A DNA stretch of 36,012 bases from an uncultured Candidatus Saccharibacteria bacterium (lineage in GTDB: Bacteria; Patescibacteriota; Minisyncoccia; Phycocordibacterales; PALSA-1337): contig CAYIFO010000001.1 of assembly GCA_964362725.1 (NCBI GenBank), forward strand, positions 1 through 36,012. Reading direction: 5' to 3'. A program made the translations under genes and the position numbers. The number at the start of each line of letters is the position of its first letter. Position 1 is the first letter of the stretch. Below, piece by piece: positions 705-33,396 of the stretch. The notes beneath the pieces are model-generated. The model saw only the letters and a program-made list of their open reading frames with translations, did no database searches and was not told where the DNA came from.

Positions 705-733
705 CAACTAATTTGTTGTATAATATTTGGCAT

Positions 734-1978
734 ATGAAAAATCTGCAAAGGGGTTTTGTTGTCCCTATTTTGATAGTGATTATTGCATTACTAGTTATCG
801 GTGGAGGGGTTTATATTTATGAAAACGAAAAAGTCGAAGTACCCGTAGTTGCCGATAATACAACACAGCAATCGAGCCAGGCTCAACAGACTAATAATCG
901 ACAAAATTCAGCAATCATTAAAACTAATCCTGTTTCGAGTGCAGTTCCGGATAAGTCTTCCTTGACTGTATCTTCACCTAATGGACAAGAAGTGTGGGTA
1001 AATGGATCAAAGCAGATAATTCGTTGGACATCCGAGGGTTCTGATGCTTCTCAGCCAGTGAATATTTTTCTAGAAAGAAAATCTCCAAATGATACGCAAT
1101 TTTGGAACATAGATATGATTGCAACAAATCAACCTGGTTCTGGTAGTTATACATGGACAGTTTCATCAAAAGATACAACCGGAAATATAGTTGCAAATGC
1201 GCAGTATAAAATTCTTATTGGCCGAAATATCGCAAAAGGATTGGGACCAGTTGACGAGAGTGATGATTACTTTCTGATTTCTACGCCTATAGCCCAACCT
1301 TCCATTACAGTCCTTTATCCTAATTATGGAGAGGTATTAAACAATGGAGGGAGAGATAATATTGCGACAGTTCGATGGACGACCTCGAATTTCGGCAACA
1401 TGAATGTCACAATAGGATTGCTTAGTAAGAACGGAGATTGGATCAAAACAATTGCTTCAGATGTTCCTAATACCGGAAATTTTAATTGGAGGACAGACCC
1501 GACGATTGCTAGTGGTGAATACAAAATTTCGGTAACATCATCGCAATCGATAACAAATTCTGGACCGGTTGTAGCTGATTCGTCGGACGATACTTTTGTT
1601 ATAAGTACACGATCAATCATTCCAGGTAAAACATTTGTGACTCTCGTATCACCAAATGGTGGCGAAATCCTTAATGTTGGTGATAAGCTAATTATCAAAT
1701 GGTCAAGTTTGGGTGAAAAACCGACCTCTGCAACAATAAGTTTAAGAAGTAATGCTCGATGTCCATATGGTTACAACTGTTCTCCACCAACACATTTATT
1801 TGCCAATATTGCTGAGATTAGTGGAAATGATCTGGATAAAGGAGAATATGAATGGATTGTTAGCAAATCCAATGTTGATAATTCGAATAACCAGTATTTA
1901 ATTGGTATAATGATAAGCAAAGATAATCTAGGCAATGCGAGTTATGATGATAGTGATTTTGGTTTTACTATAAACTAG
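734..1978 (+). CDS. Secreted or membrane-anchored protein with three tandem Ig-like repeat domains resembling Kre9/KNH-type Ser/Thr-rich domains
   Basis: The track ORF 647..1978 was trimmed to ATG 734 because its 5' end overlaps tRNA-Ile. There is an N-terminal hydrophobic anchor (FVVPILIVIIALLVIGGGVYIY). Three repeats follow the pattern SPNG.E.W..G....I.W.....YKI......DxSDD.F.I. Confidence 0.7.
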   Translation: MKNLQRGFVVPILIVIIALLVIGGGVYIYENEKVEVPVVADNTTQQSSQAQQTNNRQNSAIIKTNPVSSAVPDKSSLTVSSPNGQEVWVNGSKQIIRWTSEGSDASQPVNIFLERKSPNDTQFWNIDMIATNQPGSGSYTWTVSSKDTTGNIVANAQYKILIGRNIAKGLGPVDESDDYFLISTPIAQPSITVLYPNYGEVLNNGGRDNIATVRWTTSNFGNMNVTIGLLSKNGDWIKTIASDVPNTGNFNWRTDPTIASGEYKISVTSSQSITNSGPVVADSSDDTFVISTRSIIPGKTFVTLVSPNGGEILNVGDKLIIKWSSLGEKPTSATISLRSNARCPYGYNCSPPTHLFANIAEISGNDLDKGEYEWIVSKSNVDNSNNQYLIGIMISKDNLGNASYDDSDFGFTIN

Positions 1979-2040
1979 TTAATCCCGCTTTCATGCTATG
2001 ATTCCTGTAAGTTATTACTAATTAACCACCAATAAACATC

Positions 2041-2193
2041 ATGCTTATAACAATTGCAATAATTCTCTTGGCTCTCTGGATTCTGGGCGTTGTCGGGGTC
2101 TATACGATCGGCTGGTTTATTCACATACTTCTGGTTGTTGCTGTAGTAATGTTTCTGATTAGGATTATTCAAGGCCGAAATCCTCTTCAGTAA
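2041..2193 (+). CDS. Small membrane protein (50 aa), lmo0937 family-like
   Basis: Absent from the ORF track because it is under 60 aa. ATG 2041 to TAA 2191-2193 translates to MLITIAIILLALWILGVVGVYTIGWFIHILLVVAVVMFLIRIIQGRNPLQ. This matches the recalled family pattern (two TM helices, GW.IH.LLV.A). Confidence 0.65.
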   Translation: MLITIAIILLALWILGVVGVYTIGWFIHILLVVAVVMFLIRIIQGRNPLQ

Positions 2194-2244
2194 AATCAAT
2201 ATTCCCAATCCGACAAGGAAATTGTCGCTGAGTTTATTCAGTTC

Positions 2245-2268
2245 CGGTTGTTAAACAACCGCTTTTCT
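2245..2268 (+). terminator. Putative intrinsic terminator
   Basis: Perfect 8-1-8 palindrome CGGTTGTT-A-AACAACCG (2245-2261) followed by CTTTTCT. Confidence 0.4.
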
Positions 2269-2269
2269 G

Positions 2270-2278
2270 TGCTAAAAT
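2270..2278 (+). promoter_or_regulatory. Extended -10 element (TGcTAAAAT) 6 nt upstream of ATG 2285
   Basis: The motif sits 6 nt before the start codon and no SD-like sequence lies between them. Confidence 0.4.
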
Positions 2279-2284
2279 ACCCTC

Positions 2285-3301
2285 ATGAATAACAACACCA
2301 CGCCGAAGGACTTTTTCCTTCACCTTGGCGCCACGGTGGCCCTTTACGCGGCCGTGGTTGCCCTTATTAACCTGGCTTTTAGTGTTATCAACTACTATTT
2401 GCCGGATCAGCTGGCTGGCTATTTCTATTCTGGCAATATTGCTTGGCCGATCTCGATGCTTATTATTCTGGTGCCCATCCTGTATGTCCTCGAATATCTG
2501 ATAATCAAAGACATTAGGAAATTGCCGGGCAAGGAATCTATCTGGATCAGACGCTGGAGAATATATTTGACGCTCTTTTTGACCGGCGCGGTTATGGTCG
2601 GCGATCTCATTGCTCTGGTTAACACATATCTAAACGGTGAAATATCCGGACGTTTTGCCTACAAGGTCTTGGCTGTTTTTGTTATCGCTGGAGTGATTTT
2701 CCTCTACTACCTTATCGAAAAGAAAAGTGGTTTGGATGGTGTCGATATTGGAACAAAGTCAAATAGCCGATTTATTGTTGCCACGATCGGTCTTGTTGTC
2801 GCTCTTATAGCTATTATCTTTGGCTTTATAGCTGTTGGTTCTCCGACCAAACAGCGCAATTTGCGTTTCGACAATCAGAGAACAAATGATCTAAGCACGA
2901 TCCAGTGGCAGATAGTCAGTCATTGGCAACAAAAAGGAAAACTACCTTCGACCCTGGATGACTTGAAGGATCCGATCAGTTATAACAAAATTCCGACTGA
3001 TCCCAAGACCAAAGATGCTTACGAATATATCCAAAAAACCGCAATGAACAGTATAACGACTATCGCTGGTACCAAACCGTCATTTGAGCTTTGCGCTACT
3101 TTTGCCCTACCAACTCCGGACAACGAGGGTCGGGGTGATTTTTACGGTGGCAATTCGTATCCGACCAGGAGCATGAGCAGTGCTTATTATGACGGCGGTA
3201 TTATTATCGAAAACGACAACTGGAAGCACGAAGCCGGCCGGACTTGTTTTACCAGAACCATTGATCCGGACAAGTACCCGGTCAATCCCAAAGGTCTATA
3301 A
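2285..3301 (+). CDS. Multi-pass membrane protein, DUF5671-like N-terminal domain with an extracytoplasmic C-terminal domain
   Basis: 338-aa ORF with about 6 hydrophobic helices in the first roughly 190 aa. The family assignment is from memory of CPR proteins and has not been searched. Confidence 0.55.
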   Translation: MNNNTTPKDFFLHLGATVALYAAVVALINLAFSVINYYLPDQLAGYFYSGNIAWPISMLIILVPILYVLEYLIIKDIRKLPGKESIWIRRWRIYLTLFLTGAVMVGDLIALVNTYLNGEISGRFAYKVLAVFVIAGVIFLYYLIEKKSGLDGVDIGTKSNSRFIVATIGLVVALIAIIFGFIAVGSPTKQRNLRFDNQRTNDLSTIQWQIVSHWQQKGKLPSTLDDLKDPISYNKIPTDPKTKDAYEYIQKTAMNSITTIAGTKPSFELCATFALPTPDNEGRGDFYGGNSYPTRSMSSAYYDGGIIIENDNWKHEAGRTCFTRTIDPDKYPVNPKGL

Positions 3302-3310: not shown

Positions 3311-4726
3311 ATGAATTTAGGAAAAAAAACCAAGATTGTCTGCACGATCGGACCGGCCACGGAAAGCCAGGAAAAGTTGGAAGCCCTTCAAAAAGCCGGC
3401 ATGAATGTGGCTAGGCTCAATTTCTCCCATGGTGATTTTGCCGAACACCAGAATCGGGTTGATAATATCCGGAAAGTTATGGAAAAAACTGGTTCAATCA
3501 TCGCCATAATCCAAGATTTGGGCGGACCAAAAATCCGCATAGGGACATTCAGGGACAAAGTTGTTAACCTGGTTAGGGGCAAGACTTTTATCCTGACCAC
3601 CGACGAGATCGAAGGTACCGAGGACAAAGTCCATATCAATTACCCCGCTTTGCCCAAAGAGGTCAAGCCGGGCATATTCATTATGCTTCAGGATGGGGCC
3701 ATGAAACTAGAGGTAGTTGAAGTCAAGGGTAATGACATAATCACCAAAGTTATTTCTGGCGGGCATTTGGCCGGCCGGAAGGGTGTCAATGTGCCTGGAG
3801 CCAATCTTTCGGTCAAGTCACTGACTGAAAAAGATCGCGAGGATGTCCAGTTTGGCATCAAAAACAAGGTGGATTTCGTAGCCCTTTCTTTTGTTCGCCA
3901 TTCGTCCGACATTAGGGAACTTCGTGAATTGTTGGACAAAGCCGGTTCCAAGGCCGGTATAATCGCCAAAATTGAGACGCCGGAGGCTCTGGCGGACATA
4001 GATGGCATAATCGAACAATCGGACGCCATAATGATAGCCAGGGGCGATCTGGCCATAGAGATACCGGCGGAAGAAGTGCCCTTAGTCCAAAAATTGATTA
4101 TTCACAAGTGTAATTCGGCGGGAAAACCGGTTATCACAGCCACGCAGATGTTGGAATCAATGGTCAAGAATCCGGTGCCGACGCGGGCCGAGGTTTCCGA
4201 TATCGCTAACGCGATCATTGATGGTACCGACGCGATCATGCTTTCCGAAGAAACGACCTTGGGTGATTTTCCGGTTGAGGCGGTCGAAGTAATGACCAAG
4301 GTCGCTTTGCGAGTTGAAAAAGAAGTATATACTCGGGACACTATAGCCGAATACGAAGAATCGCATGGTATTACCGATGTTGTTTCCCAGTCGACTGTTC
4401 GTGTTGCTCATAATATTGGAGCTTCGCTTATTGTCGCCTTGACTCGCAAAGGCAGAACTCCCCGAATGATATCTCGCTACCGTCCGGCCGAAATGGTCCT
4501 GGCTTTTTCCGATGAGAAGGCTGATCTAAACAAAATGATGCTTGTTTACGGTTGTTACCCATTCTTGGTGCCGACTTTCAAAACAACCGAGGAGATCATG
4601 GAAATAGTCCGACGGACGACCTTGGACAGTAAGTTTGTCAATAAAGGGGACAAGGTGGTTATCGTCGCCGGCATGCCTTTTGGCGGTTCCAATGAAACGA
4701 ATTTCATTTTAGTTGAGACGGTCTAG
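3311..4726 (+). CDS. pyk: Pyruvate kinase
   Basis: 471 aa with hallmark segments: KIVCTIGPA, MNVARLNFSHG, DLGGPKIR, ARGDL..EIP, ATQMLESM, MLSEETT. Confidence 0.95.
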   Translation: MNLGKKTKIVCTIGPATESQEKLEALQKAGMNVARLNFSHGDFAEHQNRVDNIRKVMEKTGSIIAIIQDLGGPKIRIGTFRDKVVNLVRGKTFILTTDEIEGTEDKVHINYPALPKEVKPGIFIMLQDGAMKLEVVEVKGNDIITKVISGGHLAGRKGVNVPGANLSVKSLTEKDREDVQFGIKNKVDFVALSFVRHSSDIRELRELLDKAGSKAGIIAKIETPEALADIDGIIEQSDAIMIARGDLAIEIPAEEVPLVQKLIIHKCNSAGKPVITATQMLESMVKNPVPTRAEVSDIANAIIDGTDAIMLSEETTLGDFPVEAVEVMTKVALRVEKEVYTRDTIAEYEESHGITDVVSQSTVRVAHNIGASLIVALTRKGRTPRMISRYRPAEMVLAFSDEKADLNKMMLVYGCYPFLVPTFKTTEEIMEIVRRTTLDSKFVNKGDKVVIVAGMPFGGSNETNFILVETV

Positions 4727-4729
4727 ATA

Positions 4730-5470
4730 TTGCGTTATACTTCTCTTGTGCAGACATACGCCATCAAAGCCGAGACTTGGTTTCTCGATCGTCCATATCG
4801 CGAGTACCCGCTCACGATACATGACCTGCCGGACGAAGAGAAACCGCGCGAAAAGCTCATCCGACAAGGGCCGGAAGCTTTGAGCATCAAGGAATTGCTG
4901 GCGGTTGTTCTGGTCAGTGGCACGGTCAAAGAGGAACTCATGGAAATGTCCAATCGCCTTATCCGCGATTATGGCGAAAAGAGTATTCTGGCCGAGCGTG
5001 ATCCGGACAGATTGTCTGCAGAGCTTGATATCCCCATAGTCAAAGCCTGCCAGATCGTGGCTTGTGGGGAATTGGGTCGGCGCTTTTACGACCGTTCGGA
5101 ATCGGGTCTGACGACCGTCAGAAATGCCAAGGATGTCTACGAGTATCTCCAAGACATGCGCAACTTGCCCAAAGAGCATCTTCGCGGACTTTATCTCAAT
5201 AGTCACAATCGGATTTTGCGCGACGAGGTTATCACAATCGGGACGGTCAATTCCAATATGATCCATCCCCGTGAAGTTTTTCGGCCGGCCATCGAATGCA
5301 ATGCTGCGGCCATTATTCTGGCCCACAACCATCCGTCAGGCGAGACGGCGCCGAGTGCCGAAGATACGGAGATCACGGCCCAATTGGTCCAAGCCGGCAA
5401 GATGCTGGGTATAGCTGTTTTGGATCATGTCATCATCACCAAGAATTCTTTCGTAAGCCTATTAAAGTAA
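4730..5470 (+). CDS. radC: RadC-family JAB-domain protein (UPF0758)
   Basis: HhH-type N-terminal region (PREKL...GPEALS..ELLAVVL) and the JAB motif HNHPSGE..PS.ED. The start is uncertain: TTG 4730 or GTG 4748. Confidence 0.85.
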   Translation: MRYTSLVQTYAIKAETWFLDRPYREYPLTIHDLPDEEKPREKLIRQGPEALSIKELLAVVLVSGTVKEELMEMSNRLIRDYGEKSILAERDPDRLSAELDIPIVKACQIVACGELGRRFYDRSESGLTTVRNAKDVYEYLQDMRNLPKEHLRGLYLNSHNRILRDEVITIGTVNSNMIHPREVFRPAIECNAAAIILAHNHPSGETAPSAEDTEITAQLVQAGKMLGIAVLDHVIITKNSFVSLLK

Positions 5471-5929: not shown

Positions 5930-5959
5930 TTGACATGCAAGCACCACTTGTGATATAAT
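5930..5959 (+). promoter_or_regulatory. Near-consensus sigma70-type promoter for the 6064 gene
   Basis: TTGACA (5930-5935), 18-nt spacer, TGa-TATAAT (5951-5959). Confidence 0.6.
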
Positions 5960-6063
5960 ACCGCCAGAAAGATGAGGGTAACCCATGGGTTTGACATGGG
6001 ACTTTATTACCCGAGATCTTTTAAAACTAGGGCCATGAAAGTGGTCCAAAAAGAAAGGGTTTT

Positions 6064-7317
6064 GTGCAAAAAAACCTACCGAAGCAGATAACGCAAATAA
6101 GAGCTTATTACATCGATATTGACATCATTGTCGCGGTTGAGATACTCCGCGCATTTGGTAAATGGGAGTATTCGATCGGAGATTTACAACCCACAAAGTT
6201 CGAAAAAGTGGAGGCATTGTGCTTACCCGAAGAATTACTAATCGGCTATCCCGGTGACAATTTTAGTTGCCTGGATCAAGTCGGACATCAGATTCCGGGG
6301 ATGAGTTGTTCAAGGTGTGTAACTGATCATCTAAAGATCAGCACAATGCCTGGGATCGACTGTATCCTCAAGGCTCTGGCAAATTTGAAGAGCAAAGGAG
6401 CGCCCATTACACCGTCACATATAAGTACCTTTATTCGTGATGGCATAACTTTGTCAACTGGGGCAGAACAGACCAGAGTTATTGCTTGGGCCAGTCGCGC
6501 TGTTCAAGCAGCGCTTACCTTTTCGGTAAAGCCGTCAGAGGTAAGTGACTATGTCCATCCGGCGCAGGTTTTGTCCGGTATCGTAAACGATATTGATAAT
6601 CAGGCTGTCAAGCAGAATCTACAACGTATGGTTAGAAGTTCGGAACATCAGACAAAGTATTGCCTCGAATTCGACTTCGTATCACGGGCAATGAAAGCGA
6701 GTGGCGTTTCTGATGGTGACACGGTGGAGTGGATCAGGGAAGGATTGTTACGTTATGTGGATCAACAAAAACAGTTTTGGTCTGCCGTAGCCGAAATTCG
6801 GGATAATGGCACCACATTTCAAATTGATGGCACAAGGACCGGGCTATTGATATGTAGTGACAATCCTCAGTGCTCACGTGCCAGCCGTTTGCAAGGTATG
6901 CAACATTCGGTTTGCATCACAGTTGGCTCAAAGGGTGTGGTAATAATACCAAACGCTCATGACATGCTCGATATGAAGACTGTCTGGGCGCTTATCCGGG
7001 CAATGGAATGTCCTGTCGAGATGTCACGAAACGCCTCGTTCCAGGACTTAAGTCGCCCTGGCGTTCACCCACTTGTTCCTCACTGGAACATGAGCGAGAA
7101 GAACTCCTCTGCTATCTGTGGAGTATCAATAGCCGCTACGCGATTGAATCAGTCGGTCCTCATAAATGTCGTAAAGGCCGGGCTCAATCCACAAGGGCAG
7201 CGGTGGTTCAATAGGATCACCGATAATAGTCCAACAGCACAGGCTCGACGAGTCGCGTTCGCAAAGGATAATTCCGGAGATGGACTCGGGATTCTCGAAA
7301 CAGCCTTCAGTAAATAA
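6064..7317 (+). CDS. Hypothetical protein (417 aa), no recognisable family
   Basis: Long ORF. GTG 6064 is the first start codon after the in-frame stop at 6028-6030. It has its own promoter and terminator. Confidence 0.7.
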   Translation: MQKNLPKQITQIRAYYIDIDIIVAVEILRAFGKWEYSIGDLQPTKFEKVEALCLPEELLIGYPGDNFSCLDQVGHQIPGMSCSRCVTDHLKISTMPGIDCILKALANLKSKGAPITPSHISTFIRDGITLSTGAEQTRVIAWASRAVQAALTFSVKPSEVSDYVHPAQVLSGIVNDIDNQAVKQNLQRMVRSSEHQTKYCLEFDFVSRAMKASGVSDGDTVEWIREGLLRYVDQQKQFWSAVAEIRDNGTTFQIDGTRTGLLICSDNPQCSRASRLQGMQHSVCITVGSKGVVIIPNAHDMLDMKTVWALIRAMECPVEMSRNASFQDLSRPGVHPLVPHWNMSEKNSSAICGVSIAATRLNQSVLINVVKAGLNPQGQRWFNRITDNSPTAQARRVAFAKDNSGDGLGILETAFSK

Positions 7318-7363: not shown

Positions 7364-7433
7364 CATACAAATTATATTATTCAAAAATTCCCCCACCATT
7401 GCGCCCCCGCTCCCGCCACTGTAAACTGCAATT

Positions 7434-7820
7434 ATGTCGGCGCAAGATTATTTTAAAAGCAAAAGAATAGCGGTGGTGGGCTTGGGTCCAGAGGGTAACA
7501 TGGTCGAAGATGTCAAATTCCTGATCAAGGCAGGGGCCTTGGTCAGTGTTTACGACCTCAAGAGCGAGGCTAGGTTGAAGAGCCACCTGGTTCTTTTGCG
7601 CTCGCTGGGTCTTGCCAATCATGTCTGCGGTTCCATTCCAGCCGAGGATTTGATCGATATGGATCTCATCATCCTTTCCCATGAATATCCGCGCGATTCC
7701 TCTTTTCTCAAGGCTGTTGATGAAAAAAACAGGAGAATTGAACTCGATAAAACCAAGATTGTGGAAAAAAAAGAAAAGCCTATTCCCATCGAATACCCCG
7801 AAACACTATTTTTCAGGTGA
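7434..7820 (+). CDS. murD: UDP-N-acetylmuramoylalanine--D-glutamate ligase, N-terminal domain fragment ending at in-frame TGA 7818-7820
   Basis: Rossmann-like KRIAVVGLGPEG. The C-terminal ...ETLFFR aligns with the E. coli MurD segment (IELFCR) just before the P-loop. Confidence 0.75.
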   Translation: MSAQDYFKSKRIAVVGLGPEGNMVEDVKFLIKAGALVSVYDLKSEARLKSHLVLLRSLGLANHVCGSIPAEDLIDMDLIILSHEYPRDSSFLKAVDEKNRRIELDKTKIVEKKEKPIPIEYPETLFFR

Positions 7821-7829
7821 TCGCCTCCG

Positions 7830-8801
7830 GTGACGGTTATCGGGATAATGGGCCAGTGCGGTAAAAGCACGATCATCTCGATGCTCTCTCCGATGCTCGA
7901 GGTGGTTTGCTCCAAGACTGACAATCAGGGTTTTTTTGTTATCGATCCCGAGTCAGATAAAGGAATCATATCCAATTTGCGCAAAGTCAGGAGCGGTGAC
8001 ATCGTCCTCATGCGCCTACTTGGTCAGACGATGAAGGAACTTCATAGTATTCACATTAGTCCCCAGGTGGCAGTTTTCGCTTCGGAGCCGGCCAGAGAGG
8101 CTTACCATGATTCGCCTTTCGAGATTCTCAACTATCAGACATATAATAATTTTATAGTGGCTTCGGATGAGGTGATTGACGCGATTCGAAGTCAAAAGGT
8201 CCAACCCAAGGCCAAGATGCTACGAACAAAAATCTCGATCGTTCCTGAAACCTGGTCATTGATTAAGATTGATGGACATGATCGACAGAATGCAGCCCTA
8301 GCTTTCCAAACTGGTAAACTTTTTCGAGTTGATGATGATCTGGCCCGAGAAGTTCTGGTCAAATGGAAACCACTCAAAGGTCGTTTGGAGATGGTAAAAA
8401 AAGTCAGGGGAGTGGAGTATTACAATGACACGGCCTCAATCTGCCCTCTTTCAACGGAACAAGCTATCCGAATTTCCAGGGACAGGAATGTTATTCTGAT
8501 TTTCGGCGGGACGCGTAGCAGTCATGATTACAAGAATTTGTATTCTTTGTTGCCGGAATATGTGAAAATGGTCATTCTTCTGCCGGGTAGCGGAACGATC
8601 CATGAACGTCAGACTATCACCAAACTCAAAGATCTGAAAAGCATATCGGTTCCCTCGATCGAGGAGGCGGTTCTTCTGGCGGCCGAAAATGCCGGTAAAA
8701 ACGATAGGGTGGTCTTCAGTCCGGGCTTTGGAGCCAATGGTTTGGATAATTCAAGGAAGGAAAGAGGAGATAGGTTTGTAAAGGCCGTGCGGGGTCTTTA
8801 G
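7830..8801 (+). CDS. murD: MurD central and C-terminal domains, in the same frame as 7434..7820
   Basis: Begins VTVIGIMGQCGKST, the Mur ligase P-loop. Later Mur ligase segments follow (GRLE, YYNDTASICP). 7830-7434 is divisible by 3. Confidence 0.8.
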   Translation: MTVIGIMGQCGKSTIISMLSPMLEVVCSKTDNQGFFVIDPESDKGIISNLRKVRSGDIVLMRLLGQTMKELHSIHISPQVAVFASEPAREAYHDSPFEILNYQTYNNFIVASDEVIDAIRSQKVQPKAKMLRTKISIVPETWSLIKIDGHDRQNAALAFQTGKLFRVDDDLAREVLVKWKPLKGRLEMVKKVRGVEYYNDTASICPLSTEQAIRISRDRNVILIFGGTRSSHDYKNLYSLLPEYVKMVILLPGSGTIHERQTITKLKDLKSISVPSIEEAVLLAAENAGKNDRVVFSPGFGANGLDNSRKERGDRFVKAVRGL

Positions 8802-8820: not shown

Positions 8821-9698
8821 TCTCCGCAGATGAGGCAGACCACATCGCCCTTCATTTCCCAGTTGCGGTATGAGGCTTGAATGGCTCCAGCTACGGAAAG
8901 AGCGCTATTTGTGGAAATTTCTATGGCGGTATGTTTTGCGACCAAATCAAGGGAGTTTTCAATGTCGTCATTGGTGGCGACCCAGGCATAGCCGCCGGTT
9001 TGTTTGATATGTGGGATAAGCGCGGGACGGCGCAAAGCGGTCTGATCGACGATAGCATCGGCCAGAGATTCTTCTTGGGGACCGTCGTAATTTTCGAACT
9101 GATCGGCCAAAGGATGGCAGGCCGAAGTCTGGACTATATGGACCTGAATGGGTGATTTGTTTTTCTCGAAATACTGACAAAGAGCCTGGGCGGTTGTGCC
9201 CGAAGAAGTTCCGATGAAAACGGCGCCAATGCTTTTTGTCCCAGCTAATTCGGCAGCCAAACTCTCGTAGCCGACAAGAGCTATATCATCAGTCGATTGT
9301 CTCAAACTGCGCTTGCCTTCCTGGACAGCTTGGGTCAGGGCCTGAAGGGGACGTTCTTTGGAAAGGATCCGGATGGAATCAGAGCCAACTCGTTTTTCTA
9401 TCTCCCGAAGTTTTGCCAGTTTTTTGGGAGAAACATGTTGACCGACTAGGATGTCGAGATCTATTCCAGCCTGTTTTTTGCTATTCAATTCTTGAACATA
9501 CAAGGCGGCTGCCAAAGCGGCATTGCCGGATGAAGAAATAGCAAAATGACGGTCGCCTTGAGAGTAATAATGGTCGATCATGACGGGAATGGAGCGACCT
9601 TTGTGGGAACCGTAAGGGTGAAGATCCTCGCGTTTGAAATAAAGACCTCCGAGACCCAAAGCCTCGGCCAATTTCGGGTATTTTTCCAAAGGCGTCAT
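8817..9698 (-). CDS. Fold-type II PLP-dependent enzyme (Trp-synthase-beta-like superfamily: threonine synthase/cysteine synthase/deaminase-like)
   Basis: YFKREDLHPYGSHKGRS resembles the PALP lysine motif (K.E..NPTGSFK.R). A later segment, GTSSGTTAQA, resembles the phosphate-binding loop. Substrate unknown. Confidence 0.65.
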   Translation of the reverse strand: MTPLEKYPKLAEALGLGGLYFKREDLHPYGSHKGRSIPVMIDHYYSQGDRHFAISSSGNAALAAALYVQELNSKKQAGIDLDILVGQHVSPKKLAKLREIEKRVGSDSIRILSKERPLQALTQAVQEGKRSLRQSTDDIALVGYESLAAELAGTKSIGAVFIGTSSGTTAQALCQYFEKNKSPIQVHIVQTSACHPLADQFENYDGPQEESLADAIVDQTALRRPALIPHIKQTGGYAWVATNDDIENSLDLVAKHTAIEISTNSALSVAGAIQASYRNWEMKGDVVCLICGD

Positions 9699-9751
9699 GT
9701 TGCTATCCTACCTTTTTTTCGTTACCATTGAAAGATGTTTGTAAAACAATC

Positions 9752-9946
9752 ATGTTGCAACAAAATATAAAATCAGAAAATAGTCTTTGTGTTTGCCCGG
9801 AATGCAAAAATACCGTTGATCTATCGCCCTATCCCAATTTGGCTCCTGGTATGGTCATCGAATGCGATCATTGTGGGATGACGCTTTTGGTGAAAGAGAT
9901 AAGCGACGGTCAAATCAAGACTGAAATAGTCGACGAAGGGAAGTGA
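9752..9946 (+). CDS. Small zinc-ribbon protein, LysW-like (CPEC...CDHC) with an acidic C-terminal tail
   Basis: 64 aa from ATG 9752. CPECKNTVDL....VIECDHCGMTLLV...EIVDEGK parallels the LysW carrier-protein layout, but the EDWGE C-terminus is not conserved. Confidence 0.45.
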   Translation: MLQQNIKSENSLCVCPECKNTVDLSPYPNLAPGMVIECDHCGMTLLVKEISDGQIKTEIVDEGK

Positions 9947-11405
9947 CCGTTTCTTCAATCATTCCTCGGAATCCGTGCGAACCTAAGAAAGCAATGACAT
10001 CGTCCTTTTTTGCATTTGAGACCAAAAAATCAATGAGAGCTTTGTCGTCATCAATATAGTTGACTTGAGGATGAGTTTTGCCGATTACTTTTGCCAATTC
10101 GTCGCCTTCCATGGGTTGCTCGTCCTCTTTTGCGTTTGCTCCAAAAACTGTTTCGGAATCGATCTTCTTTGAGATAACTTTGAGTTTGGTCAAGCGGGGA
10201 ATGATCACGATATCTGAATCAACAAAAGCCTCATCGTATTTGACTACTGATTCTCGGCTCCTGCCACCTATGTTGGGCTCGAAAACCGTTATTATTTTGC
10301 CGGTATAAATGGATCGCAAGGTACCAAGGACAGATGAAGCCTTTTCGGGCGAATGGGCAATGTCGTCAATGATCGTGATATTGCCTTCAAGGCGTTTTTC
10401 CATTCTTCTTTTGAGTCCTTGGAAGAGGGAAATGGCTTGGATTGTTTTATCGGTTGATATGCCCAGACTGCAAGCAAGTGCGAAACAGCCGGTAATATTT
10501 TCGGCTTGATAAAGACCCAGAAGAGGTGAAGTGATTTCGAATTCCTGGCCATCGTGGATTATGGTCAATTTGAGACCATCTTTTGATTGTCTGACGTTTT
10601 TGTAGCCGTAAAAGTTGGGCAAAGTTTCGGCTTTTGGCATTTCGCGACCATAAAAGACTAAACTTTTGCCTTTGAAAGATTGAAGCATTTCTTCAATGTT
10701 CTCGCGGTCCCTACAGGCGACAATCAGTCCGTTATCGGGCATGGATTTGATCAATTGTTCAAAGGCCCGGAGATAATCTTTTTCGGTCGGATAGAGATCG
10801 GCATGATCCCAGGAAACAGCAGTCAAAAGGAGGTGAGTGGCTTTGTAATGGAAGAATTTGGCGCGGGAATCGGTGGGGGAACTTTTGTACTCGTCGCCTT
10901 CGAAGACGCTAATATTAGAGTCTGTCAGTTTGGCTGACGAATCATGGGAAAGAGAAATACCACCAAACATGTAGGCGGGGTCGAGCCCGGCTTGTTCAAG
11001 AATGAATGAAAACAGAGCCGATGAAGAAGTCTTGCCCCAGGTGCCGGCGCAGACTATTGATTTTTCTTTGGCCATGAAGCGGCCGATAATCTCCGGATAC
11101 GAATAGGTGGGAATATTATTTTGCCTGGCGTATTCGGTCTCGGGATTGCGACTGCCGGCGGCCGCCCCGATCATGACTATGCCACCTTCAAAGTCTCCGC
11201 CGAACATTTTTTCGGGATGCCAGCCGGCATAGAAGTCGATATCATGCTTCTCTAATTCAGTTGATACGGGTGGATAGAAACCCTTGTCGCTACCGCTTAC
11301 AATGACCCCCTTTTTCTGGAAAGCAATGGCCAAAGCACTGGTGGCCACTCCGCAAATCCCGATGACATGGAGCCTTTTGGGCAGGGTTGGGGAGGTTGCA
11401 TTCAT
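9915..11405 (-). CDS. Mur ligase family enzyme, Mpl/MurC type
   Basis: N-terminal HVIGICG....SGSDKGFYPPVSTELEK resembles Mpl (GICG, YPP.ST). P-loop GTWGKTS. 496 aa. Confidence 0.8.
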   Translation of the reverse strand: MNATSPTLPKRLHVIGICGVATSALAIAFQKKGVIVSGSDKGFYPPVSTELEKHDIDFYAGWHPEKMFGGDFEGGIVMIGAAAGSRNPETEYARQNNIPTYSYPEIIGRFMAKEKSIVCAGTWGKTSSSALFSFILEQAGLDPAYMFGGISLSHDSSAKLTDSNISVFEGDEYKSSPTDSRAKFFHYKATHLLLTAVSWDHADLYPTEKDYLRAFEQLIKSMPDNGLIVACRDRENIEEMLQSFKGKSLVFYGREMPKAETLPNFYGYKNVRQSKDGLKLTIIHDGQEFEITSPLLGLYQAENITGCFALACSLGISTDKTIQAISLFQGLKRRMEKRLEGNITIIDDIAHSPEKASSVLGTLRSIYTGKIITVFEPNIGGRSRESVVKYDEAFVDSDIVIIPRLTKLKVISKKIDSETVFGANAKEDEQPMEGDELAKVIGKTHPQVNYIDDDKALIDFLVSNAKKDDVIAFLGSHGFRGMIEETVTSLRRLFQS

Positions 11406-11473
11406 GGTTTGTTTAGTATAGCCTAATATCGGAAAGTGTGAAATTATGTTGAAAATTTACGATTGGAGGATAA

Positions 11474-12211
11474 ATGAGACCTACATTGGAAGCGATTGCG
11501 GAAGAGAAGATTCATCCGCCAATTAAAACAGAACAAGAGCTCAACCAGGAAGAAGTGTACAAACATACTACTGGCATATGCTTCGGAGAACAAAACGGGG
11601 TCGAGGATTGCAGAGAAATAGATGCTGTTTTGATATTTGGTACTTCAAAACAAGGTTGTCAAACAGCATGTGGCAGGTATCTCCGTGACCTCATCGAATT
11701 TGGAAATCCAACTGATGTTTATGTGACCGGTGGAAAAATAGACGCATCTGGGTATTCAGAGTCAGACAAGATGCGTGACATAATATTCGCCAACGGATCG
11801 CTAAATTCGTCTGGCATCAATTTTCATTTCGAGAGTTTGTCTAAAAACACCCTCGAAAATGTTAACCAAGCTTTTGCTCAAGGTCTGGCTAGACACGAGA
11901 AAATAGCTTTTATTGGTAAATGGCAACATTGTGGGAGATGCCGACTAACTATCCAGAAAGTTGCACCTCTCATAAGAACAATTTTTCAGCGAGGATACAT
12001 GGTATCTTTTCTGGATGCGCCGGGTGTTCTGGCTCCTGAATTTTGGTTTAACGTGCCTGAATACAAGAGAGTTGTCTTTGAGGAGTTGGCGAAAATCGCT
12101 TGCTACGGAGAGAGAGGCGATATTGCCTACCCCTCTCATATCGCGAGCAAGATTTCGACAATCAAACAACTTTTCTCAAATCTAGGCTGGCTATGGCCAG
12201 TCATTACATAA
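11474..12211 (+). CDS. DUF218 (YdcF/ElyC/SanA-like) domain protein
   Basis: The order of elements fits DUF218: VLIFGTS, VTGGK, YSESDKMRD, SKNTLENV, FIGKWQHCGRC. This is one of the few genes with a GGAGG upstream (11465-11469). Confidence 0.5.
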   Translation: MRPTLEAIAEEKIHPPIKTEQELNQEEVYKHTTGICFGEQNGVEDCREIDAVLIFGTSKQGCQTACGRYLRDLIEFGNPTDVYVTGGKIDASGYSESDKMRDIIFANGSLNSSGINFHFESLSKNTLENVNQAFAQGLARHEKIAFIGKWQHCGRCRLTIQKVAPLIRTIFQRGYMVSFLDAPGVLAPEFWFNVPEYKRVVFEELAKIACYGERGDIAYPSHIASKISTIKQLFSNLGWLWPVIT

Positions 12212-14085: not shown

Positions 14086-14121
14086 ATTAACATGGAAAGA
14101 GGCGGTTATTCAATGTAGCTA

Positions 14122-22934: not shown

Positions 22935-22941
22935 TAGAAAT

Positions 22942-25149: not shown

Positions 25150-25200
25150 TTGTTATTTTTCTCACCTAAATCCTAGCTCCCTAATCCGTATAGACTAAAA

Positions 25201-25656
25201 ATGATCGATACCATCAAAAAAACCTACGCTGTTCTGGATGAGAGACATCCAACAAAAGTCAAAATAGTCCGCTACCTTATTTCGGGTGGCATGGCGGCTT
25301 TTACCGACCTGCTTTTCCTTTATATTTTCACGGACATTTTCGGTATCTGGTATATTCTTTCGGCCATCGTCGCTTTCCTTCTTTCTTTTCTGGTCAGTTT
25401 TTCTATGCAGAAATACTGGACATTCAAGGATCATTCAAGTGATCGATTCCGCACCCAAGCCGTCACCTATCTCTTTGTGACCGTGACCAACTTGGGGATT
25501 AATACATTGGGTATTTTTCTTTTCGTCCAATATGTTCATTTGCATTACATGATCTCGCAAATTATCGTCAGCGCTTTTATTGCCATCGAAAGTTTCTTCG
25601 TCTATCAGGTGGTTTTCAAACAAAGAAACGACCTGACAATCACTGAAAACCCATGA
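25201..25656 (+). CDS. GtrA-family membrane protein (polyprenyl-phosphate-sugar flippase-like)
   Basis: 151 aa with 4 TM helices. RYLISGGMAAFTDLLFLYIF and SF.MQKYWTFK are typical of GtrA. Confidence 0.8.
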   Translation: MIDTIKKTYAVLDERHPTKVKIVRYLISGGMAAFTDLLFLYIFTDIFGIWYILSAIVAFLLSFLVSFSMQKYWTFKDHSSDRFRTQAVTYLFVTVTNLGINTLGIFLFVQYVHLHYMISQIIVSAFIAIESFFVYQVVFKQRNDLTITENP

Positions 25657-28322: not shown

Positions 28323-28351
28323 TTGACTAATAAGTTAGGAGGTGATATTAT
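28323..28351 (+). promoter_or_regulatory. Near-consensus sigma70-type promoter
   Basis: TTGACT (28323-28328), 17-nt spacer, TGa-TATTAT (28343-28351). Confidence 0.55.
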
Positions 28352-28397
28352 GTTTAGGAATTTGAACATAACAACTTAATAATAGAAAGGGGGTTTT

Positions 28398-29093
28398 GTG
28401 TCAAAAAACAGAATTCAATCAGGCAACGAAATCCTGATTGATTGGTTTGTTCGGAATTGGAAAGTTCAAGAAGTCGATTTGTATGAGATTTGTCGCAATC
28501 ATAAAGTTGACTTGATCGTGCCGGTTTCTTACACCACTCTCCCAGATCGCCTTGTCGATGCTACTCTGGCGAATCTAAAAAATGCGGCACATATACACTC
28601 GGTCTTTCGAGATTCACACATTGCTTTTGCTTCCTGCGAATCTACTGGCTATCCATTTAGTGGAGCCGGCAATATTGAAGATCTTTTCAAAGAGCAATTT
28701 CTTGGAGTTCATGATATCAAGCCGTTGATCGCTCCCCATATGGGTAATACCATTGATGAGGCCTATAAAATCAAGCTCACGCTTGATACTGTGGGTATTC
28801 ATCCGAAAGGAATAATGATCTGCACGGGTGAACTTCACGGGCCGAGCGCTAAGTTGGTTTACAGGATGTTTTTTCCAGAGTCTCGGATTTTCATCTCGAC
28901 AGTGTCGTATAGACTGGAAATCCAACCGGATCATCCCGTGCTTGACCAGCGGACCATGAACCGTTGGATATTGAGTAATGTTAAGAGACAGGCGGCTCTG
29001 CGGGCTTGCTATGGAATTTGGAAAATAAACCGGCCACTTGGTCTAAAATGCCTCCATGTTCTGCGGAAGATTAAACACAAAGCGGCTAATTAA
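28398..29093 (+). CDS. DUF218 (YdcF/ElyC/SanA-like) domain protein
   Basis: GNTIDEAYK and ICTGELHGPSAKLVY fit the DUF218 nT.eNa and vT..yH..Ra positions. GTG start. Confidence 0.5.
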   Translation: MSKNRIQSGNEILIDWFVRNWKVQEVDLYEICRNHKVDLIVPVSYTTLPDRLVDATLANLKNAAHIHSVFRDSHIAFASCESTGYPFSGAGNIEDLFKEQFLGVHDIKPLIAPHMGNTIDEAYKIKLTLDTVGIHPKGIMICTGELHGPSAKLVYRMFFPESRIFISTVSYRLEIQPDHPVLDQRTMNRWILSNVKRQAALRACYGIWKINRPLGLKCLHVLRKIKHKAAN

Positions 29094-29946: not shown

Positions 29947-29948
29947 TT

Positions 29949-31094
29949 CTATCTTTTTATTATGTTATCGTAAAGATCGAGATATGCCCGGTCCATCTTT
30001 TCTAGGGAGAAATTAAGGTCGACATTATCTTTGGCTCTTTTGCTCATCTCCCAATACTTATCAAACGGCAAATTCAAGATATATTCAAGGCCTTCTTTCA
30101 GAGCCGAAACGGAATGTTCCTTGGCAATATAGCCTGTTTCCCTGTCCTTAACAATTTCTGGCATAGCATCGATTTTTGTCGTCACAACCGGTGTGCCACA
30201 GGCCTGCGATTCGGCGGCCACCAAGCCGAAGGAGTCTCCGAAAGTCGGATAAAGAAAGACGTCGCTGGCCCCAAAGTATTTTGCCATAAGTTTCTTGTCG
30301 GCAGTATATGGTAAAGACAAACGATTGGATCCAGTCTTAATATTATCATTACCGATAACTAGGAAGAAAATGTCAGAATTATCAACATAACTTTCCATTA
30401 TTTGACGAGAAATAAGCCAGCCTTTGAGACCAAACATAACAATCTTTTTATTAAGAGGTAGACCAAGCTCCTGGCGCGTCACTCGTTTGTCATAAGGTCT
30501 GAAGATATCTGTATCAACGCCATTATATATTCGGCGAATATTTTGCTTGGCCAAAATGCTTCTTTCAAGCTCATTTTTCATCCAGTCTGAAACAGCTACC
30601 AAATGCAATTTACATTTGGAATAGATCTTTTCTTTGGTTTTGAGAAGGTGTGCTGTATTGTCCCAAAGATAAAAAAGAAATCTTTTTTTGTTGGGATTTT
30701 TTCGGGTGGCGCTATCGCTGGCAAAACCGGTTATAGCCCAGAGGTCATGGATGGTCCAGATAACTTTTTTCTCCCGGGACATTCTTTTTAGATCTCGCAG
30801 GTTAAAAAAGTTACTGTGGAGATTATGACAATGAATAATGTCGGCTTCTCTGTATTCCTTGGTTCGGAAAATATAGCCAGTTCCGGCAAATCTTAAGTCA
30901 TTGGCAAAAAGTTTGACCAGCGAATCTTGCCAGCGTTTTCTGGGAATTTTGAAAACATCGGGCTCGTCTGAATATTTATAGCGAACAAAAGTGTTGACAG
31001 TATGGCCCAAAGATTTCATTTTCTTCCGGATCTCCCAGGCAACCAAAGCCGCTCCTCCTTTGTTGTCAATTGTGCTTAAAACTAAGATATTCAT
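29949..31094 (-). CDS. Glycosyltransferase family 4
   Basis: YPTFGDSFGLVAAESQACGTPVVTTKIDAMPEIVKDRETGY. Confidence 0.8.
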   Translation of the reverse strand: MNILVLSTIDNKGGAALVAWEIRKKMKSLGHTVNTFVRYKYSDEPDVFKIPRKRWQDSLVKLFANDLRFAGTGYIFRTKEYREADIIHCHNLHSNFFNLRDLKRMSREKKVIWTIHDLWAITGFASDSATRKNPNKKRFLFYLWDNTAHLLKTKEKIYSKCKLHLVAVSDWMKNELERSILAKQNIRRIYNGVDTDIFRPYDKRVTRQELGLPLNKKIVMFGLKGWLISRQIMESYVDNSDIFFLVIGNDNIKTGSNRLSLPYTADKKLMAKYFGASDVFLYPTFGDSFGLVAAESQACGTPVVTTKIDAMPEIVKDRETGYIAKEHSVSALKEGLEYILNLPFDKYWEMSKRAKDNVDLNFSLEKMDRAYLDLYDNIIKR

Positions 31095-31149
31095 ATGAGT
31101 CTATACATGATTTCGCTATGTGAGACAAAGTATATAGGGTGAGTAGACT

Positions 31150-32190
31150 TTAGGCGAAGCATTTCCTGATCAAATTATCGGCCAAGATTTTGGATGTCAA
31201 ATTTTGTCTGTAAAATTCGTAACCATTTTTCGCCACTAGTTCCAAAATTTCCGGTCGATTTTTCAAAAAGAGTATTTTGTCAGCCAAGTCTCGCGGATCA
31301 CCTGGCTTGGAACAGAGGCAGGTCTCATCTTCCTTGAGCAATTCAAGAACGGCTTTGTTGCGAGCGGTCAGATAGGGTAGGCGCATGGCCAGACTCTCGA
31401 AGGATTTGCAGGGCAAGGTTCTCTCCAGACGGGGATGGTCAGCCATTTGACCCAAGCTTATATGTGAAGCCTGCATCTTTTTTCTCAATTCATCAATGGG
31501 TAATGAATGATTGATCATAACAATGTTTTTTGGCTTAAGTTCATCCATGAGCGTATTGACCAATCTATAAGAAAAACCGTGGCCTATGATAAGAAAAGCT
31601 ATATCAGAATCCTCTAAAATTTTGGCCACTTTTATGACCGTGTCAATGCCTGATTCGGGCAGAAAGCGCCCTCTGAAAAGCACGGTGAATTTTGAGTATT
31701 TGGAAACATTTGGTTCATAATAATATTCCTTTTCATTTAATCCGGACCAGGAAAGGATCAATTTATTTCTTTTAACCAACCAATTTCGGCCGATGTATTT
31801 GATTTGCGAGGGGCTTTCGAGTAGAACCAACGAAGCCAGGTGGAATGAGATAAAATCAATAAGCCACCACTTCATAGCCTCAAATGAAAAAGGACTGATG
31901 CCACGCGAAACGATGTTGCCTTCATACTGGGAAGAAGTAGCATTGTATATGATCCTATTTTTGGAAAATATTCTAGCTATTGGGACAAAAAACGGGGAAG
32001 TAAAGCCAACAAAGATTGCATCATATTTTACAACCTCTCTTTTCAGGTATTTGGCCAAATTGCTATATTTTTTCATTCCTGGAGAATTTTCCTCAAGTTC
32101 AATGACTTTGTGACCATTTTCCTTGAGTCCATCGATGATGTGTCTGTCGTGAGGAAAAATGTTTCGGGTGTTTATATAGAGAAATTTCAT
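31150..32190 (-). CDS. Glycosyltransferase-like protein (GT-B fold)
   Basis: The start was trimmed from GTG 32208 to ATG 32190 (MKFLYIN...). FRGRFLPESGIDTVIKVAKIL..DIAFLIIGHG is typical of the C-terminal Rossmann half. Confidence 0.55.
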   Translation of the reverse strand: MKFLYINTRNIFPHDRHIIDGLKENGHKVIELEENSPGMKKYSNLAKYLKREVVKYDAIFVGFTSPFFVPIARIFSKNRIIYNATSSQYEGNIVSRGISPFSFEAMKWWLIDFISFHLASLVLLESPSQIKYIGRNWLVKRNKLILSWSGLNEKEYYYEPNVSKYSKFTVLFRGRFLPESGIDTVIKVAKILEDSDIAFLIIGHGFSYRLVNTLMDELKPKNIVMINHSLPIDELRKKMQASHISLGQMADHPRLERTLPCKSFESLAMRLPYLTARNKAVLELLKEDETCLCSKPGDPRDLADKILFLKNRPEILELVAKNGYEFYRQNLTSKILADNLIRKCFA

Positions 32191-32198
32191 TGGCTTCA

Positions 32199-32223
32199 AG
32201 TATATCACGCGATTTGCTACAAT
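32199..32223. promoter_or_regulatory. Back-to-back -10 elements in a 39-bp divergent intergenic region
   Basis: The minus strand carries TGaTATACT (reverse complement of 32199-32207), 8 nt before ATG 32190. The plus strand carries TACAAT (32218-32223), 6 nt before ATG 32230. Confidence 0.45.
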
Positions 32224-32229
32224 CTACTC

Positions 32230-33396
32230 ATGACAAAACGGATGTTTCTCCTATTTCATGGCCGGTTTCCGGGAGAAAAAGCCGCCTCGCTTTTTACGGC
32301 CAAGAACGCCGAAGCTTTCGCCAAAGCCGGGCTCCAAGTCAAAGTTTTGGTGCCGAGACGAAAAGATGTCGAGCCCCAGACAGCTTTCGATTATTATGCG
32401 ATTTCCAAGAATTTTGAAATTGTGGAATTGCCGACTACCGACTTCTTTGCTCTGAAAATCCCCAAGCGCTTGGCTTTTCTTGTGAGCTTTATCGCATTTT
32501 CTCTGGCTTGTTTTTATTATCTGCGCCGACAATCACCTGATAAGGATGATCTTGCCTATTCAAACGAATCTTTACCTCTTTGGGCGGCTTCTTTTGCCGG
32601 TCTCAGTACTTTTTATGAAATGCATGATTTTCCCGAAAGCAAGCTCGGTCTCTTCGGATTGTTACTTAAAAGGTTTGATTGGATTTTGATTCATAACCGC
32701 TGGAAAGTCCAAGAATTCAAGAAGATTTTTCCCAAAATTAAAGCTAAGATTTTGTGCGAGCCCAATGCTGTCGATATAAAAGAATTTGATATCCAGATTT
32801 CGAAAGAAGAAGCACGAGATCGGTTGGGTCTTGATGCTGGTAATCGCGGCAAACAAATAGCCGTCTACACAGGCCATCTTTTTGGTTGGAAAGGTGTCGA
32901 TACGTTGGCTAAAGCAGCTGAAATTTTGGGCAACGATTGTTTGGTCATTTTTGTAGGCGGAACGGAAAAAGATGTTATTGCATTCAAGAAAAAATACGGA
33001 CAAGTTCCAAATATCCTGATAGTCGGTCACAAGCTACACAAAGAGATTCCGATCTGGCAAAAGGCGGCTGATGTTTTGATCTTGCCCAATACGGCCAAGG
33101 AGGCAATTTCTACCTTTTACACCTCGCCAATGAAACTCTACGAATACATGGCCAGCCGAAGGCCGATAGTGGCTTCGGATATCCCTTCGGTTCGAGAGAT
33201 TGTTGATGAAACTTGCGCTGTCCTAGTCAAGCCGGATGAGCCAGAGGTACTTGCTATTGCCATTAGATCCGTGTTAGAGAGGTCGGACCTCTCTAACACA
33301 AAACTGATCGATATGGCGATGTCGCGAGCTCATTTGCGGACTTGGGACAGAAGAGCAGATAATATTATTGCTTTTATGAAAAACAATGCTCAATAA
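32230..33396 (+). CDS. Glycosyltransferase family 4
   Basis: GHLFGWKGVDTL and SPMKLYEYMASRRPIVASDIPSVREIV. The start was trimmed to ATG 32230. Confidence 0.75.
   Translation: MTKRMFLLFHGRFPGEKAASLFTAKNAEAFAKAGLQVKVLVPRRKDVEPQTAFDYYAISKNFEIVELPTTDFFALKIPKRLAFLVSFIAFSLACFYYLRRQSPDKDDLAYSNESLPLWAASFAGLSTFYEMHDFPESKLGLFGLLLKRFDWILIHNRWKVQEFKKIFPKIKAKILCEPNAVDIKEFDIQISKEEARDRLGLDAGNRGKQIAVYTGHLFGWKGVDTLAKAAEILGNDCLVIFVGGTEKDVIAFKKKYGQVPNILIVGHKLHKEIPIWQKAADVLILPNTAKEAISTFYTSPMKLYEYMASRRPIVASDIPSVREIVDETCAVLVKPDEPEVLAIAIRSVLERSDLSNTKLIDMAMSRAHLRTWDRRADNIIAFMKNNAQ
33271..33299. repeat. 29-nt perfect palindrome inside a CDS
   Basis: GTGTTAGAGAGGTC-G-GACCTCTCTAACAC, encoding VLERSDLSNT. Its 15-nt core is identical to 28280-28294. 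Confidence 0.9.

Follow-up and report, generated by a model that had tools for sequence, protein, structure and literature searches.

Promoter-like -10 hexamers at start codons suggest leaderless mRNAs in a Parcubacteria lineage without an anti-Shine–Dalgarno sequence

Main finding

Positions 1 to 36,012 of contig CAYIFO010000001.1 (36,012 nt, hereafter the window) were analysed for -10-like hexamers of the form TANNNT that lie a few nucleotides upstream of start codons. The combined evidence supports the reading that these hexamers behave as sigma70 -10 boxes, which would put the transcription start (+1) on the A of the ATG. We estimate a probability of about 85 % that the organism makes bacterial-type leaderless mRNAs, with -10 boxes at the start codon and the transcript beginning on AUG or GUG. 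A first-pass annotation of the window had already suggested leaderless transcripts, and this suggestion is supported by the TGn and TTG elements that accompany the hexamers, by the preference for ATG and GTG starts and by conservation among orthologues, all of which point to a transcript probably starting on the start codon.

Hexamer position relative to start codons

Genes were called by codon-usage score and the first ATG of each open reading frame (ORF) was taken as the start, the motif not being used in this choice. The gap was defined as the number of nucleotides between the TANNNT hexamer and the start codon. Seven of the 29 window genes had the motif at gap 6, against a mean of 0.54 per offset at gaps 12–59 (binomial P=9e-7), an enrichment of ~13-fold, and 0 of 2000 shuffles of the upstream 40 nt gave seven genes at this gap. 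The first-pass annotation had named an equal frequency of AT-rich hexamers at every offset as the result that would speak against it; the window instead has a spike at gap 6. The same annotation had given a range of 5–10 nt, within which 11 genes were found where 3–4 were expected (P~0.0005), so the excess stood while the breadth did not, the real signal being the sharp spike at gap 6, which has a shoulder at gap 7. Its placement of the box at most operon-first genes holds for the window, where 13–15 of ~20 transcription-unit-first genes had a box at gap 5–10. Among the internal genes of the window just 2 of ~13 had a box in this range.

A related set of 80 loci (1.14 Mb) was taken from species-representative genomes scanned with the window pyruvate kinase. 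These loci are titled Candidatus Taylorbacteria, Paceibacterota, Parcubacteria or Patescibacteria and encode pyruvate kinases of 57–83 % identity; because the related pyruvate kinase loci carry these titles, the window organism is, by sequence relationship, placed as a candidate phyla radiation (CPR) bacterium of the Parcubacteria/Paceibacteria group. An identical pyruvate kinase is encoded on contigs of Hainich groundwater metagenomes. In the relatives, TANNNT was at gap 6 in 257 of 992 genes (26 %), compared with ~30 per offset (a baseline of 2–3 %). In the 80 loci plus the window, the spike was present in operon-first genes (156 vs ~18 per offset, n=577) and in close-packed genes (78 vs ~8 per offset, n=319). 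It persisted when one random member was drawn from each of 325 families (56 at gap 6 vs 10.4, P~1e-24) and in families of one or two members (16 % vs ~3 % per offset). Enrichment in the relatives was 5–9 fold, and every identity bin showed the spike, at 22–35 %.

A count that did not depend on gene calls gave a similar picture, with 1066 occurrences of TANNNT-N6-ATG compared with ~780 at other gaps, and 33 % of these occurrences opened an ORF of 100 codons or more, compared with ~14 % for other in-phase gaps. With an identical pipeline, just 1 of 123 genes in 150 kb of Escherichia coli K-12 had TANNNT at gap 6. An artefact of the in-frame stop that bounds the ORF was considered as the origin of the spike and rejected, since T was at -10 in 46 % (TAT, not a stop). 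No TANNNT spike was found at the in-phase gaps 3, 9, 12 and 15.

Promoter anatomy and start codons

Hexamer spacing alone is not decisive for a promoter, as Shine–Dalgarno (SD) sites lie at similar distances, and accessory elements were therefore compared between genes with and without the box. TG at -15/-14 was present in 40 % of genes with TANNNT at gap 6 and in 5 % of hexamer-less genes (Fisher P 1e-31), and TTG 16–18 nt upstream of the hexamer in 29 % and 9 % respectively (Fisher P 1e-12). TGn or TTG was found in 61 % of gap-6 genes vs 13 %, and both together in just 8 %. Extended -10 and -35 elements usually compensate for each other; TGn and TTG are mostly present as one or the other, and therefore fit this known trade-off. 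Base frequencies in the gap-6 genes were 52–58 % for T-15/G-14, 69 % for A-8 and ~60 % for T at -35/-34, and upstream regions were ~66 % A+T. A generic sigma70 scan recovered the promoters of RadC and of the gene at 11405 and revealed two leadered consensus promoters, and was too permissive to discriminate.

The box at gap 6 preceded 26 % of first ATGs and 15.5 % of first GTGs, and the spike was absent from first TTGs (4.4 %) and from later in-frame ATGs (2.3 %). The presence of the box at ATG and GTG and not at TTG is therefore consistent with transcription from a purine that doubles as the first start-codon base.

Conservation among orthologues

Window proteins were projected onto the 80 related loci and the box was scored before the aligned start codon. 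Among diverged relatives the box was retained at its position for boxed window genes with aligned orthologues (Table 1). It was found in just 3 of 78 orthologues of the pyruvate kinase gene, which lies 9 nt behind its neighbour, in 3 of 57 for the gene at 5495 and in 2 of 43 for that at 12947. The box stays with particular genes as a stable trait. The RadC and MraY-like cases, at 4748 and 14076, came to light through this comparison.

Start-codon hexamers in the window

All 14 hexamers listed in the first-pass annotation were recovered by script with the same coordinates, strands, start codons and gaps, and the two cases found through orthologues were added to them (Table 1).

Table 1. Candidate start-codon promoters and the 16S rRNA end in the window. 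Orthologues are those having the box among the aligned orthologues; leaders are the lengths expected for the mRNA.
Feature	Position	Strand	Gap (nt)	Orthologues	Remarks
16S rRNA 3' end	1–46	+			Rfam alignment to SSU_rRNA_bacteria 1488–1533; helix 45 intact
TATAAT 719–724 (or TAATAT 721–726), ATG 734	719–736	+	9 (or 7)	Two retain gTATAGTatttNNcatATG at equal spacing	First gene after tRNA-Ile; leader 0–3 nt expected
TGcTAAAAT (extended -10), ATG 2285, DUF5671 protein	2270–2287	+	6	19/38 at gap 6; 26/38 at gap 5–8	
TTGAGA 4713–4718, 17 nt, TATACT 4736–4741, GTG 4748, RadC	4713–4750	+	6	38/59 at gap 6; ATG at codon aligned to GTG 4748	Not in first list; 10/12 consensus matches; -35 within pyruvate kinase gene end (stop codon 4724–4726)
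TAAACT, ATG 7434, MurD-like ligase	7422–7436	+	6	29/54 at gap 6	
TAGGAT 9710–9705, ATG 9698, pyridoxal phosphate (PLP)-dependent enzyme	9696–9710	-	6	39/54 at gap 6; several with identical TAGGAT	
TTCACA, 16 nt, TATACT 11420–11415, ATG 11405, MurC-like ligase	11403–11442	-	9	35/52 at gap 5–8; close ones at gap 8–9, more distant at gap 6	10/12 consensus matches; leader ~3 nt expected
TGtTAATGT 14092–14084, ATG 14076, MraY-like glycosyltransferase 4	14074–14092	-	7	36/37 at gap 5–8 before aligned ATG, mostly with TGn	Not in first list
TAAACT 16389–16384, ATG 16377, ATP-grasp protein	16375–16389	-	6	11/18 at gap 6	
TGtTACTGT, ATG 16604, TP_methylase family	16589–16606	+	6	12/17 at gap 6	
TATAAT, ATG 17875, 75-aa predicted membrane protein	17862–17877	+	7	No orthologue found in 80 related loci	Codon score positive for this ORF, negative for competing - strand ORF
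TGaTATAAT, ATG 19777, VirD4/TraG-like ATPase	19758–19779	+	10	Four begin within one codon; box at gap 6–10	Upstream ORF has negative codon score; leader ~3–4 nt expected
TATAAT 22930–22935, ATG 22942, glycosyltransferase	22930–22944	+	6		Upstream TAA stop 22932–22934 within hexamer
gTATAGACT, ATG 25201, GtrA-like	25189–25203	+	6 (TATAGA) or 4 (TAGACT)	None aligned at N-terminus among 80 loci	Weaker call
gTATAGACT, ATG 31094, glycosyltransferase	31092–31105	-	5 (TATAGA) or 3 (TAGACT)		Weaker call
TGaTATACT 32207–32199, ATG 32190; TACAAT 32218–32223, ATG 32230	32188–32232	-; +	8; 6		Divergent back-to-back promoters; 39-nt intergenic region; each -35 region inside the opposite gene

A perfect 10-bp inverted repeat (tctgggatgt gtc acatcccaga) at 19732–19754 adjoins the extended -10 of the VirD4/TraG-like gene, in the place of a -35 element, and may serve as an operator or terminate the preceding unit.

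Loss of the anti-Shine–Dalgarno sequence

The first-pass annotation had stated that the 16S tail lacks an anti-SD, and alignment of window positions 1–46 to the Rfam model shows this to be correct. In the column-by-column alignment, the tail at 34–46, GAAUAUUUCAAAG, takes the place of the Rfam consensus GAUcACCUCCUUu, and the anti-SD core CCUCC is changed to UUUCA. The tail core is GGAAUAUUUCAA where GAUCACCUCCUU is canonical, the window tail being GGAAUAUUUCAAAG, without CCUCC. All of the related loci covering the 16S end (32/32) also lack CCUCC and have either the window tail or the close variant GGATTATTTCAA; the tail in these 32 loci is GGA[A/U]UAUUUCAA or a one-base variant, and the sequences diverge only beyond it. 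Anti-SD loss is thus clade-wide, and the replacement tail GGAWUAUUUCAA is itself conserved. Its conservation, while the sequence after it diverges, suggests that the replacement tail has some function.

Consistent with this loss, no peak of SD tetramers (GGAG/GAGG/AGGA type) was found 5–9 nt upstream of genes in the 80 loci and the window (7.7 % of genes vs ~5.5 % background), and this peak was absent in every gene class. As a positive control, the identical script found SD tetramers at gap 5–9 in 77 % of E. coli K-12 genes. The replacement of CCUCC and the missing SD peak bear out the agreement that the first-pass annotation had seen between the hexamers and the absent anti-SD. Metagenome 16S sequences with a canonical tail and the same helix-45 apex came mostly from unrelated bacteria (helix 45 TAGCC/GGC). 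Among their 107 usable flanking genes, TANNNT was at gap 6 in 2 and SD tetramers were found in 45 %, this set being a loose control that is mostly non-Parcubacteria and not a comparison within Parcubacteria.

At 11459–11476, an isolated GGAGG precedes ATG 11474, the start of a DUF218 protein gene, by 4 nt, and the window 16S is unable to pair with it. The gene has a single match in the 80 loci, which falls short of the N-terminus, and for this reason it may have been recently acquired.

Gene spacing and gene classes

The first-pass annotation had described the box at operon-first genes. In the wider sample it is not restricted to these, as a gap-6 box was found in 33–43 % of genes that follow a same-strand neighbour at 9–50 nt. 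By distance from the same-strand upstream gene, the frequency of the gap-6 box was at baseline from overlap to 3 nt (0–20 %, small n), 20 % at 4–8 nt, 33 % at 9–14 nt, 43 % at 15–25 nt (60 % at gap 5–8), 33 % at 26–50 nt and 24–34 % beyond 50 nt; with a divergent neighbour it was 25 %. At a distance of 7 nt the upstream TAA stop falls in TATAAT, and 9 of 13 such clade genes have a box at gap 5–8. The close-packed 'internal' genes show the same TGn and -35 signals, their -35 region reading TTGA. The window hexamer at 22930–22935 is a probable promoter at an 'internal' gene of this kind.

Three gene classes emerge from these comparisons, namely genes with their own promoter at the start codon, abutting or overlapping genes without a box, and genes behind a short A-rich spacer with neither box nor SD. 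The pyruvate kinase gene, aaaacaaaaaaATG, is an example of the third class. An unbiased k-mer search upstream of motif-less genes returned A/T-rich words only (AAATAA, TAAATA and others), in no specific register. Abutting genes in the related loci mostly lie +1 to +3 nt from the upstream gene (TAAnATG type, 44 genes), with 16 at -4 and 5 at -1, and are box-less.

Two window genes with leadered consensus promoters were also recorded. TTGACA-18-TGaTATAAT (12/12 consensus matches) is followed by a leader of ~100 nt and GTG 6064 (5930–6076), and TTGACT-17-TGaTATTAT by a leader of ~40 nt and GTG 28398 (28323–28410). Both GTGs are embedded in a common 26-nt block, AGAAAGGG(GG)TTTTGTG(T)CAAAAAA, which was not found elsewhere in the 80 loci. 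Neither ORF had a Pfam hit; in the 80 loci the ORF at 6064 had two matches only, both non-N-terminal, and that at 28398 had none.

Proposed mode of initiation

The hexamers would be the -10 elements of a housekeeping (sigma70-type) promoter at -12 to -7 from the A or G of the start codon. Because this is the canonical geometry, +1 is expected on the A of the ATG, and the first base of AUG or GUG would be where RNA polymerase begins the transcript. With the start codon at the 5' terminus, the ribosome with initiator tRNA would recognize it directly, making SD pairing unnecessary; such pairing would in any case be impossible with a 16S tail that lacks CCUCC. Termination-reinitiation would presumably serve those genes that overlap the upstream stop codon or lie within 3 nt of it.

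Several observations weigh against leaderless initiation, or limit its reach. The start of the mRNA at the AUG is throughout deduced from sequence, and start assignment was crude, by the first-ATG rule. The 80 loci are syntenic and many of their genes orthologous; the family weighting applied as a correction reduces the gap-6 rate to 17 %. The box is at exactly gap 6 in just about a quarter of genes and at gap 5–8 in ~45 % of non-coupled genes (12–18 % in the control), and many genes must therefore use another initiation route. A pyrimidine at -1 does not discriminate, being common whatever the gene class. The strong consensus promoters of GTG 6064 and GTG 28398, with leaders of 40–100 nt and a purine-rich SD-like block, indicate that leadered mRNAs are probably made too. 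Both TATAGA hexamers (25189–25194 and 31100–31105) lack the canonical final T (T-7), and the sites at gap 9–10 (734, 11405 and 19777) fall in a range of just 1.3–2 fold clade enrichment and would give leaders of 2–4 nt, not strictly leaderless mRNAs. The gap 9–10 sites and both TATAGA hexamers are individually uncertain.

Alternative explanations

The hexamers might be chance matches in AT-rich intergenic DNA without positional information, in keeping with the A+T content of the upstream regions and the just 1.3–2 fold enrichment at gaps 8–10. A two-hexamer promoter scan was likewise barely above shuffles in one half of the window (38 vs 29.6±6.1; 45 vs 28.6±5.2 in the other). A spike at a single offset that is missing at in-phase gaps, in shuffles and in E. 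coli is nevertheless not what chance produces; this explanation is already refuted for the gap 6–7 class, and overall we consider it extremely improbable. Less remote, although still unlikely, is a non-SD ribosome-binding signal in the mRNA before all genes, internal ones included, on the model of Bacteroidetes-type genomes, either AU-rich or a new 'SD' pairing with the tail GGAAUAUUUCAA. The spacing is SD-like, the motif also precedes close-packed internal genes, the clade-wide conservation of the replacement tail suggests some function, and the variant tail AUUAU is complementary to the AUAAU of TATAAT. However, the TGn and the TTG at 16–18 nt accompany the hexamer at internal genes too and have no role in translation, TATAAT is most frequent under both tails, GGAAUAUUUCAA (AAUAUU) and GGAUUAUUUCAA (AUUAUU), TTG starts are without the motif, and complements of the TGAAA type (G-containing) have no positional peak. 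Altered-SD pairing was also rejected as a candidate in its own right, as tail complements were no commoner than for 300 permuted tails except at coupled genes, where the excess reflects AAA-TAA stop contexts and is an artefact.

It is also conceivable that the promoters are real but that the annotated ATGs are not the true starts, with translation beginning further downstream on a conventional leader. Starts were indeed assigned by rule, and the genes at 25201, 31094, 32190, 32230 and 17875 have no orthologue alignment supporting the N-terminus. Such an arrangement would leave unexplained the fixed 6 nt to ATG or GTG, kept in orthologues that align from that codon; moreover, later in-frame ATGs lack the motif, and Pfam domains begin 1–25 residues from several of these starts. 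We regard a downstream start as improbable, marginally more so than a ribosome-binding signal. Leaderless initiation from promoters at the start codon is thus preferred. A wider form of it, tentative and with the odds somewhat against it, is that the clade gave up SD initiation, that nearly every non-coupled gene has its own leaderless promoter, that polycistronic operons with internal ribosome-binding sites are largely nonexistent, and that the tail GGAWUAUUUCAA has a function other than mRNA selection. If this were true, the preceding gene would often contain the promoter in its 3' end or even in its stop codon.

Other features of the window

The window has a G+C content of ~44 %. The final 46 nt of a bacterial 16S rRNA come first, followed by tRNA-Leu(CAG), tRNA-Ile(GAU) and ~33 protein genes. 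The products include DUF5670 and DUF5671 proteins, pyruvate kinase, RadC, Mur ligases, an MraY-like transferase, a VirD4-like ATPase and a long series of glycosyltransferases. The gene order from 16S to pyruvate kinase is kept in 32 related loci. No 23S rRNA gene lies within the 36 kb, and the 16S and 23S rRNA genes therefore appear to be unlinked.

The MurD-like ligase gene (7434–8801) is broken by an in-frame TGA at 7818–7820 (…FFR*SPPVTVIGIMGQCGKST…). Eleven orthologues are single ORFs of 437–478 aa with Leu, His or Ile at the position of the TGA, and TGA is the ordinary stop of 15 % of clade genes. Recoding was rejected because the orthologues are uninterrupted and TGA is a normal stop in the clade; the TGA is a nonsense mutation, a pseudogene or an assembly error. 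An unlisted ORF for a 65-aa zinc-ribbon protein (CxxC…CxxC) was found at 9752–9946 (+), convergent with the MurC-like gene and overlapping its 3' end by ~30 nt. It has ~17 orthologues in related loci and a weak LysW-like Pfam match that scores under the family cut-off, and the ATP-grasp gene (15097–16377) lies near it.

Comparison with known systems and significance

Leaderless initiation is established in Actinobacteria, Deinococcus and archaea. The bacterial leaderless genes of GeneMarkS-2 'group C' have as their signature a Pribnow box 6–8 nt before the start codon of first genes. The group comprises Actinobacteria (for example Mycobacterium tuberculosis) and Deinococcus-Thermus; the transcription start site is the A or G of the start codon in 25–50 % of transcription units, and internal genes use SD sites (PMC6028130). 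The window clade is similar in having the box at gap 6–7 in between about one quarter and one half of the non-coupled genes. It differs in that group C retains the anti-SD, and SD sites for internal and leadered genes, whereas the window clade has neither an anti-SD nor an SD peak, and in that the box is as frequent 9–50 nt behind a same-strand neighbour as at operon-first genes. CPR and Parcubacteria are also not among the lineages reported for group C.

An anti-SD motif was detectable in just 48 % of Parcubacteria, and CCTCCT loss in a subgroup of these overlapped the group lacking uL1 (Tsurumaki et al. 2022, RNA 28:1041; PMC9297842). That study left the consequences open, gave no mode of translation start and does not use 'leaderless' in its text. 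The window organism and its relatives are likewise Parcubacteria-affiliated, as judged by the titles of the closest loci and the DUF5670 and DUF5671 proteins, and lack CCTCCT at the 16S 3' end, and the promoter-at-start-codon architecture is the new element here. Loss of the anti-SD along with missing SD-like signals was described for insect endosymbionts and haemotropic mycoplasmas, with leaderless translation 'or other unknown mechanisms' suggested as a substitute (Lim, Furuta and Kobayashi 2012; PMC3457768). Leaderless translation was assumed there without a signal from promoter position, whereas in the window clade this signal is explicit and conserved; theirs were intracellular symbionts, whereas the window clade consists of free-living or episymbiotic groundwater CPR. 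The motif-less genes of the window, such as pyruvate kinase, look similar to those of Bacteroidetes, which have A-rich sequence just upstream of starts and no functional SD. Non-SD initiation in Bacteroidetes ('group B') involves a retained anti-SD and a motif in transcribed leaders. The dominant motif of the window clade differs in having promoter anatomy (TGn, -35).

The literature search, which left most subscription journals outside its reach, returned no report linking leaderless expression to Patescibacteria, Parcubacteria, CPR or Saccharibacteria. The mechanism is known; new are the lineage, the fact that SD is completely absent and a promoter architecture set gene by gene.

How translation starts without an anti-SD has been an open question since the loss was noticed, by Lim et al. 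2012 in endosymbionts and by Tsurumaki et al. 2022 in Parcubacteria. The answer offered here, for one large uncultured lineage, is that transcription would be set on the start codon, with coupling at abutting genes. In these genomes, starts will be misplaced by gene callers built on the assumption of SD sites, and can be corrected with the help of the -10 box at -12 to -7. Operon predictions based on short intergenic distances would be wrong where promoters sit inside upstream genes. The lineage would also show, in nature, a bacterial ribosome that does without SD pairing. It bears as well on the debate over the proposal that translation was ancestrally initiated in the leaderless mode.

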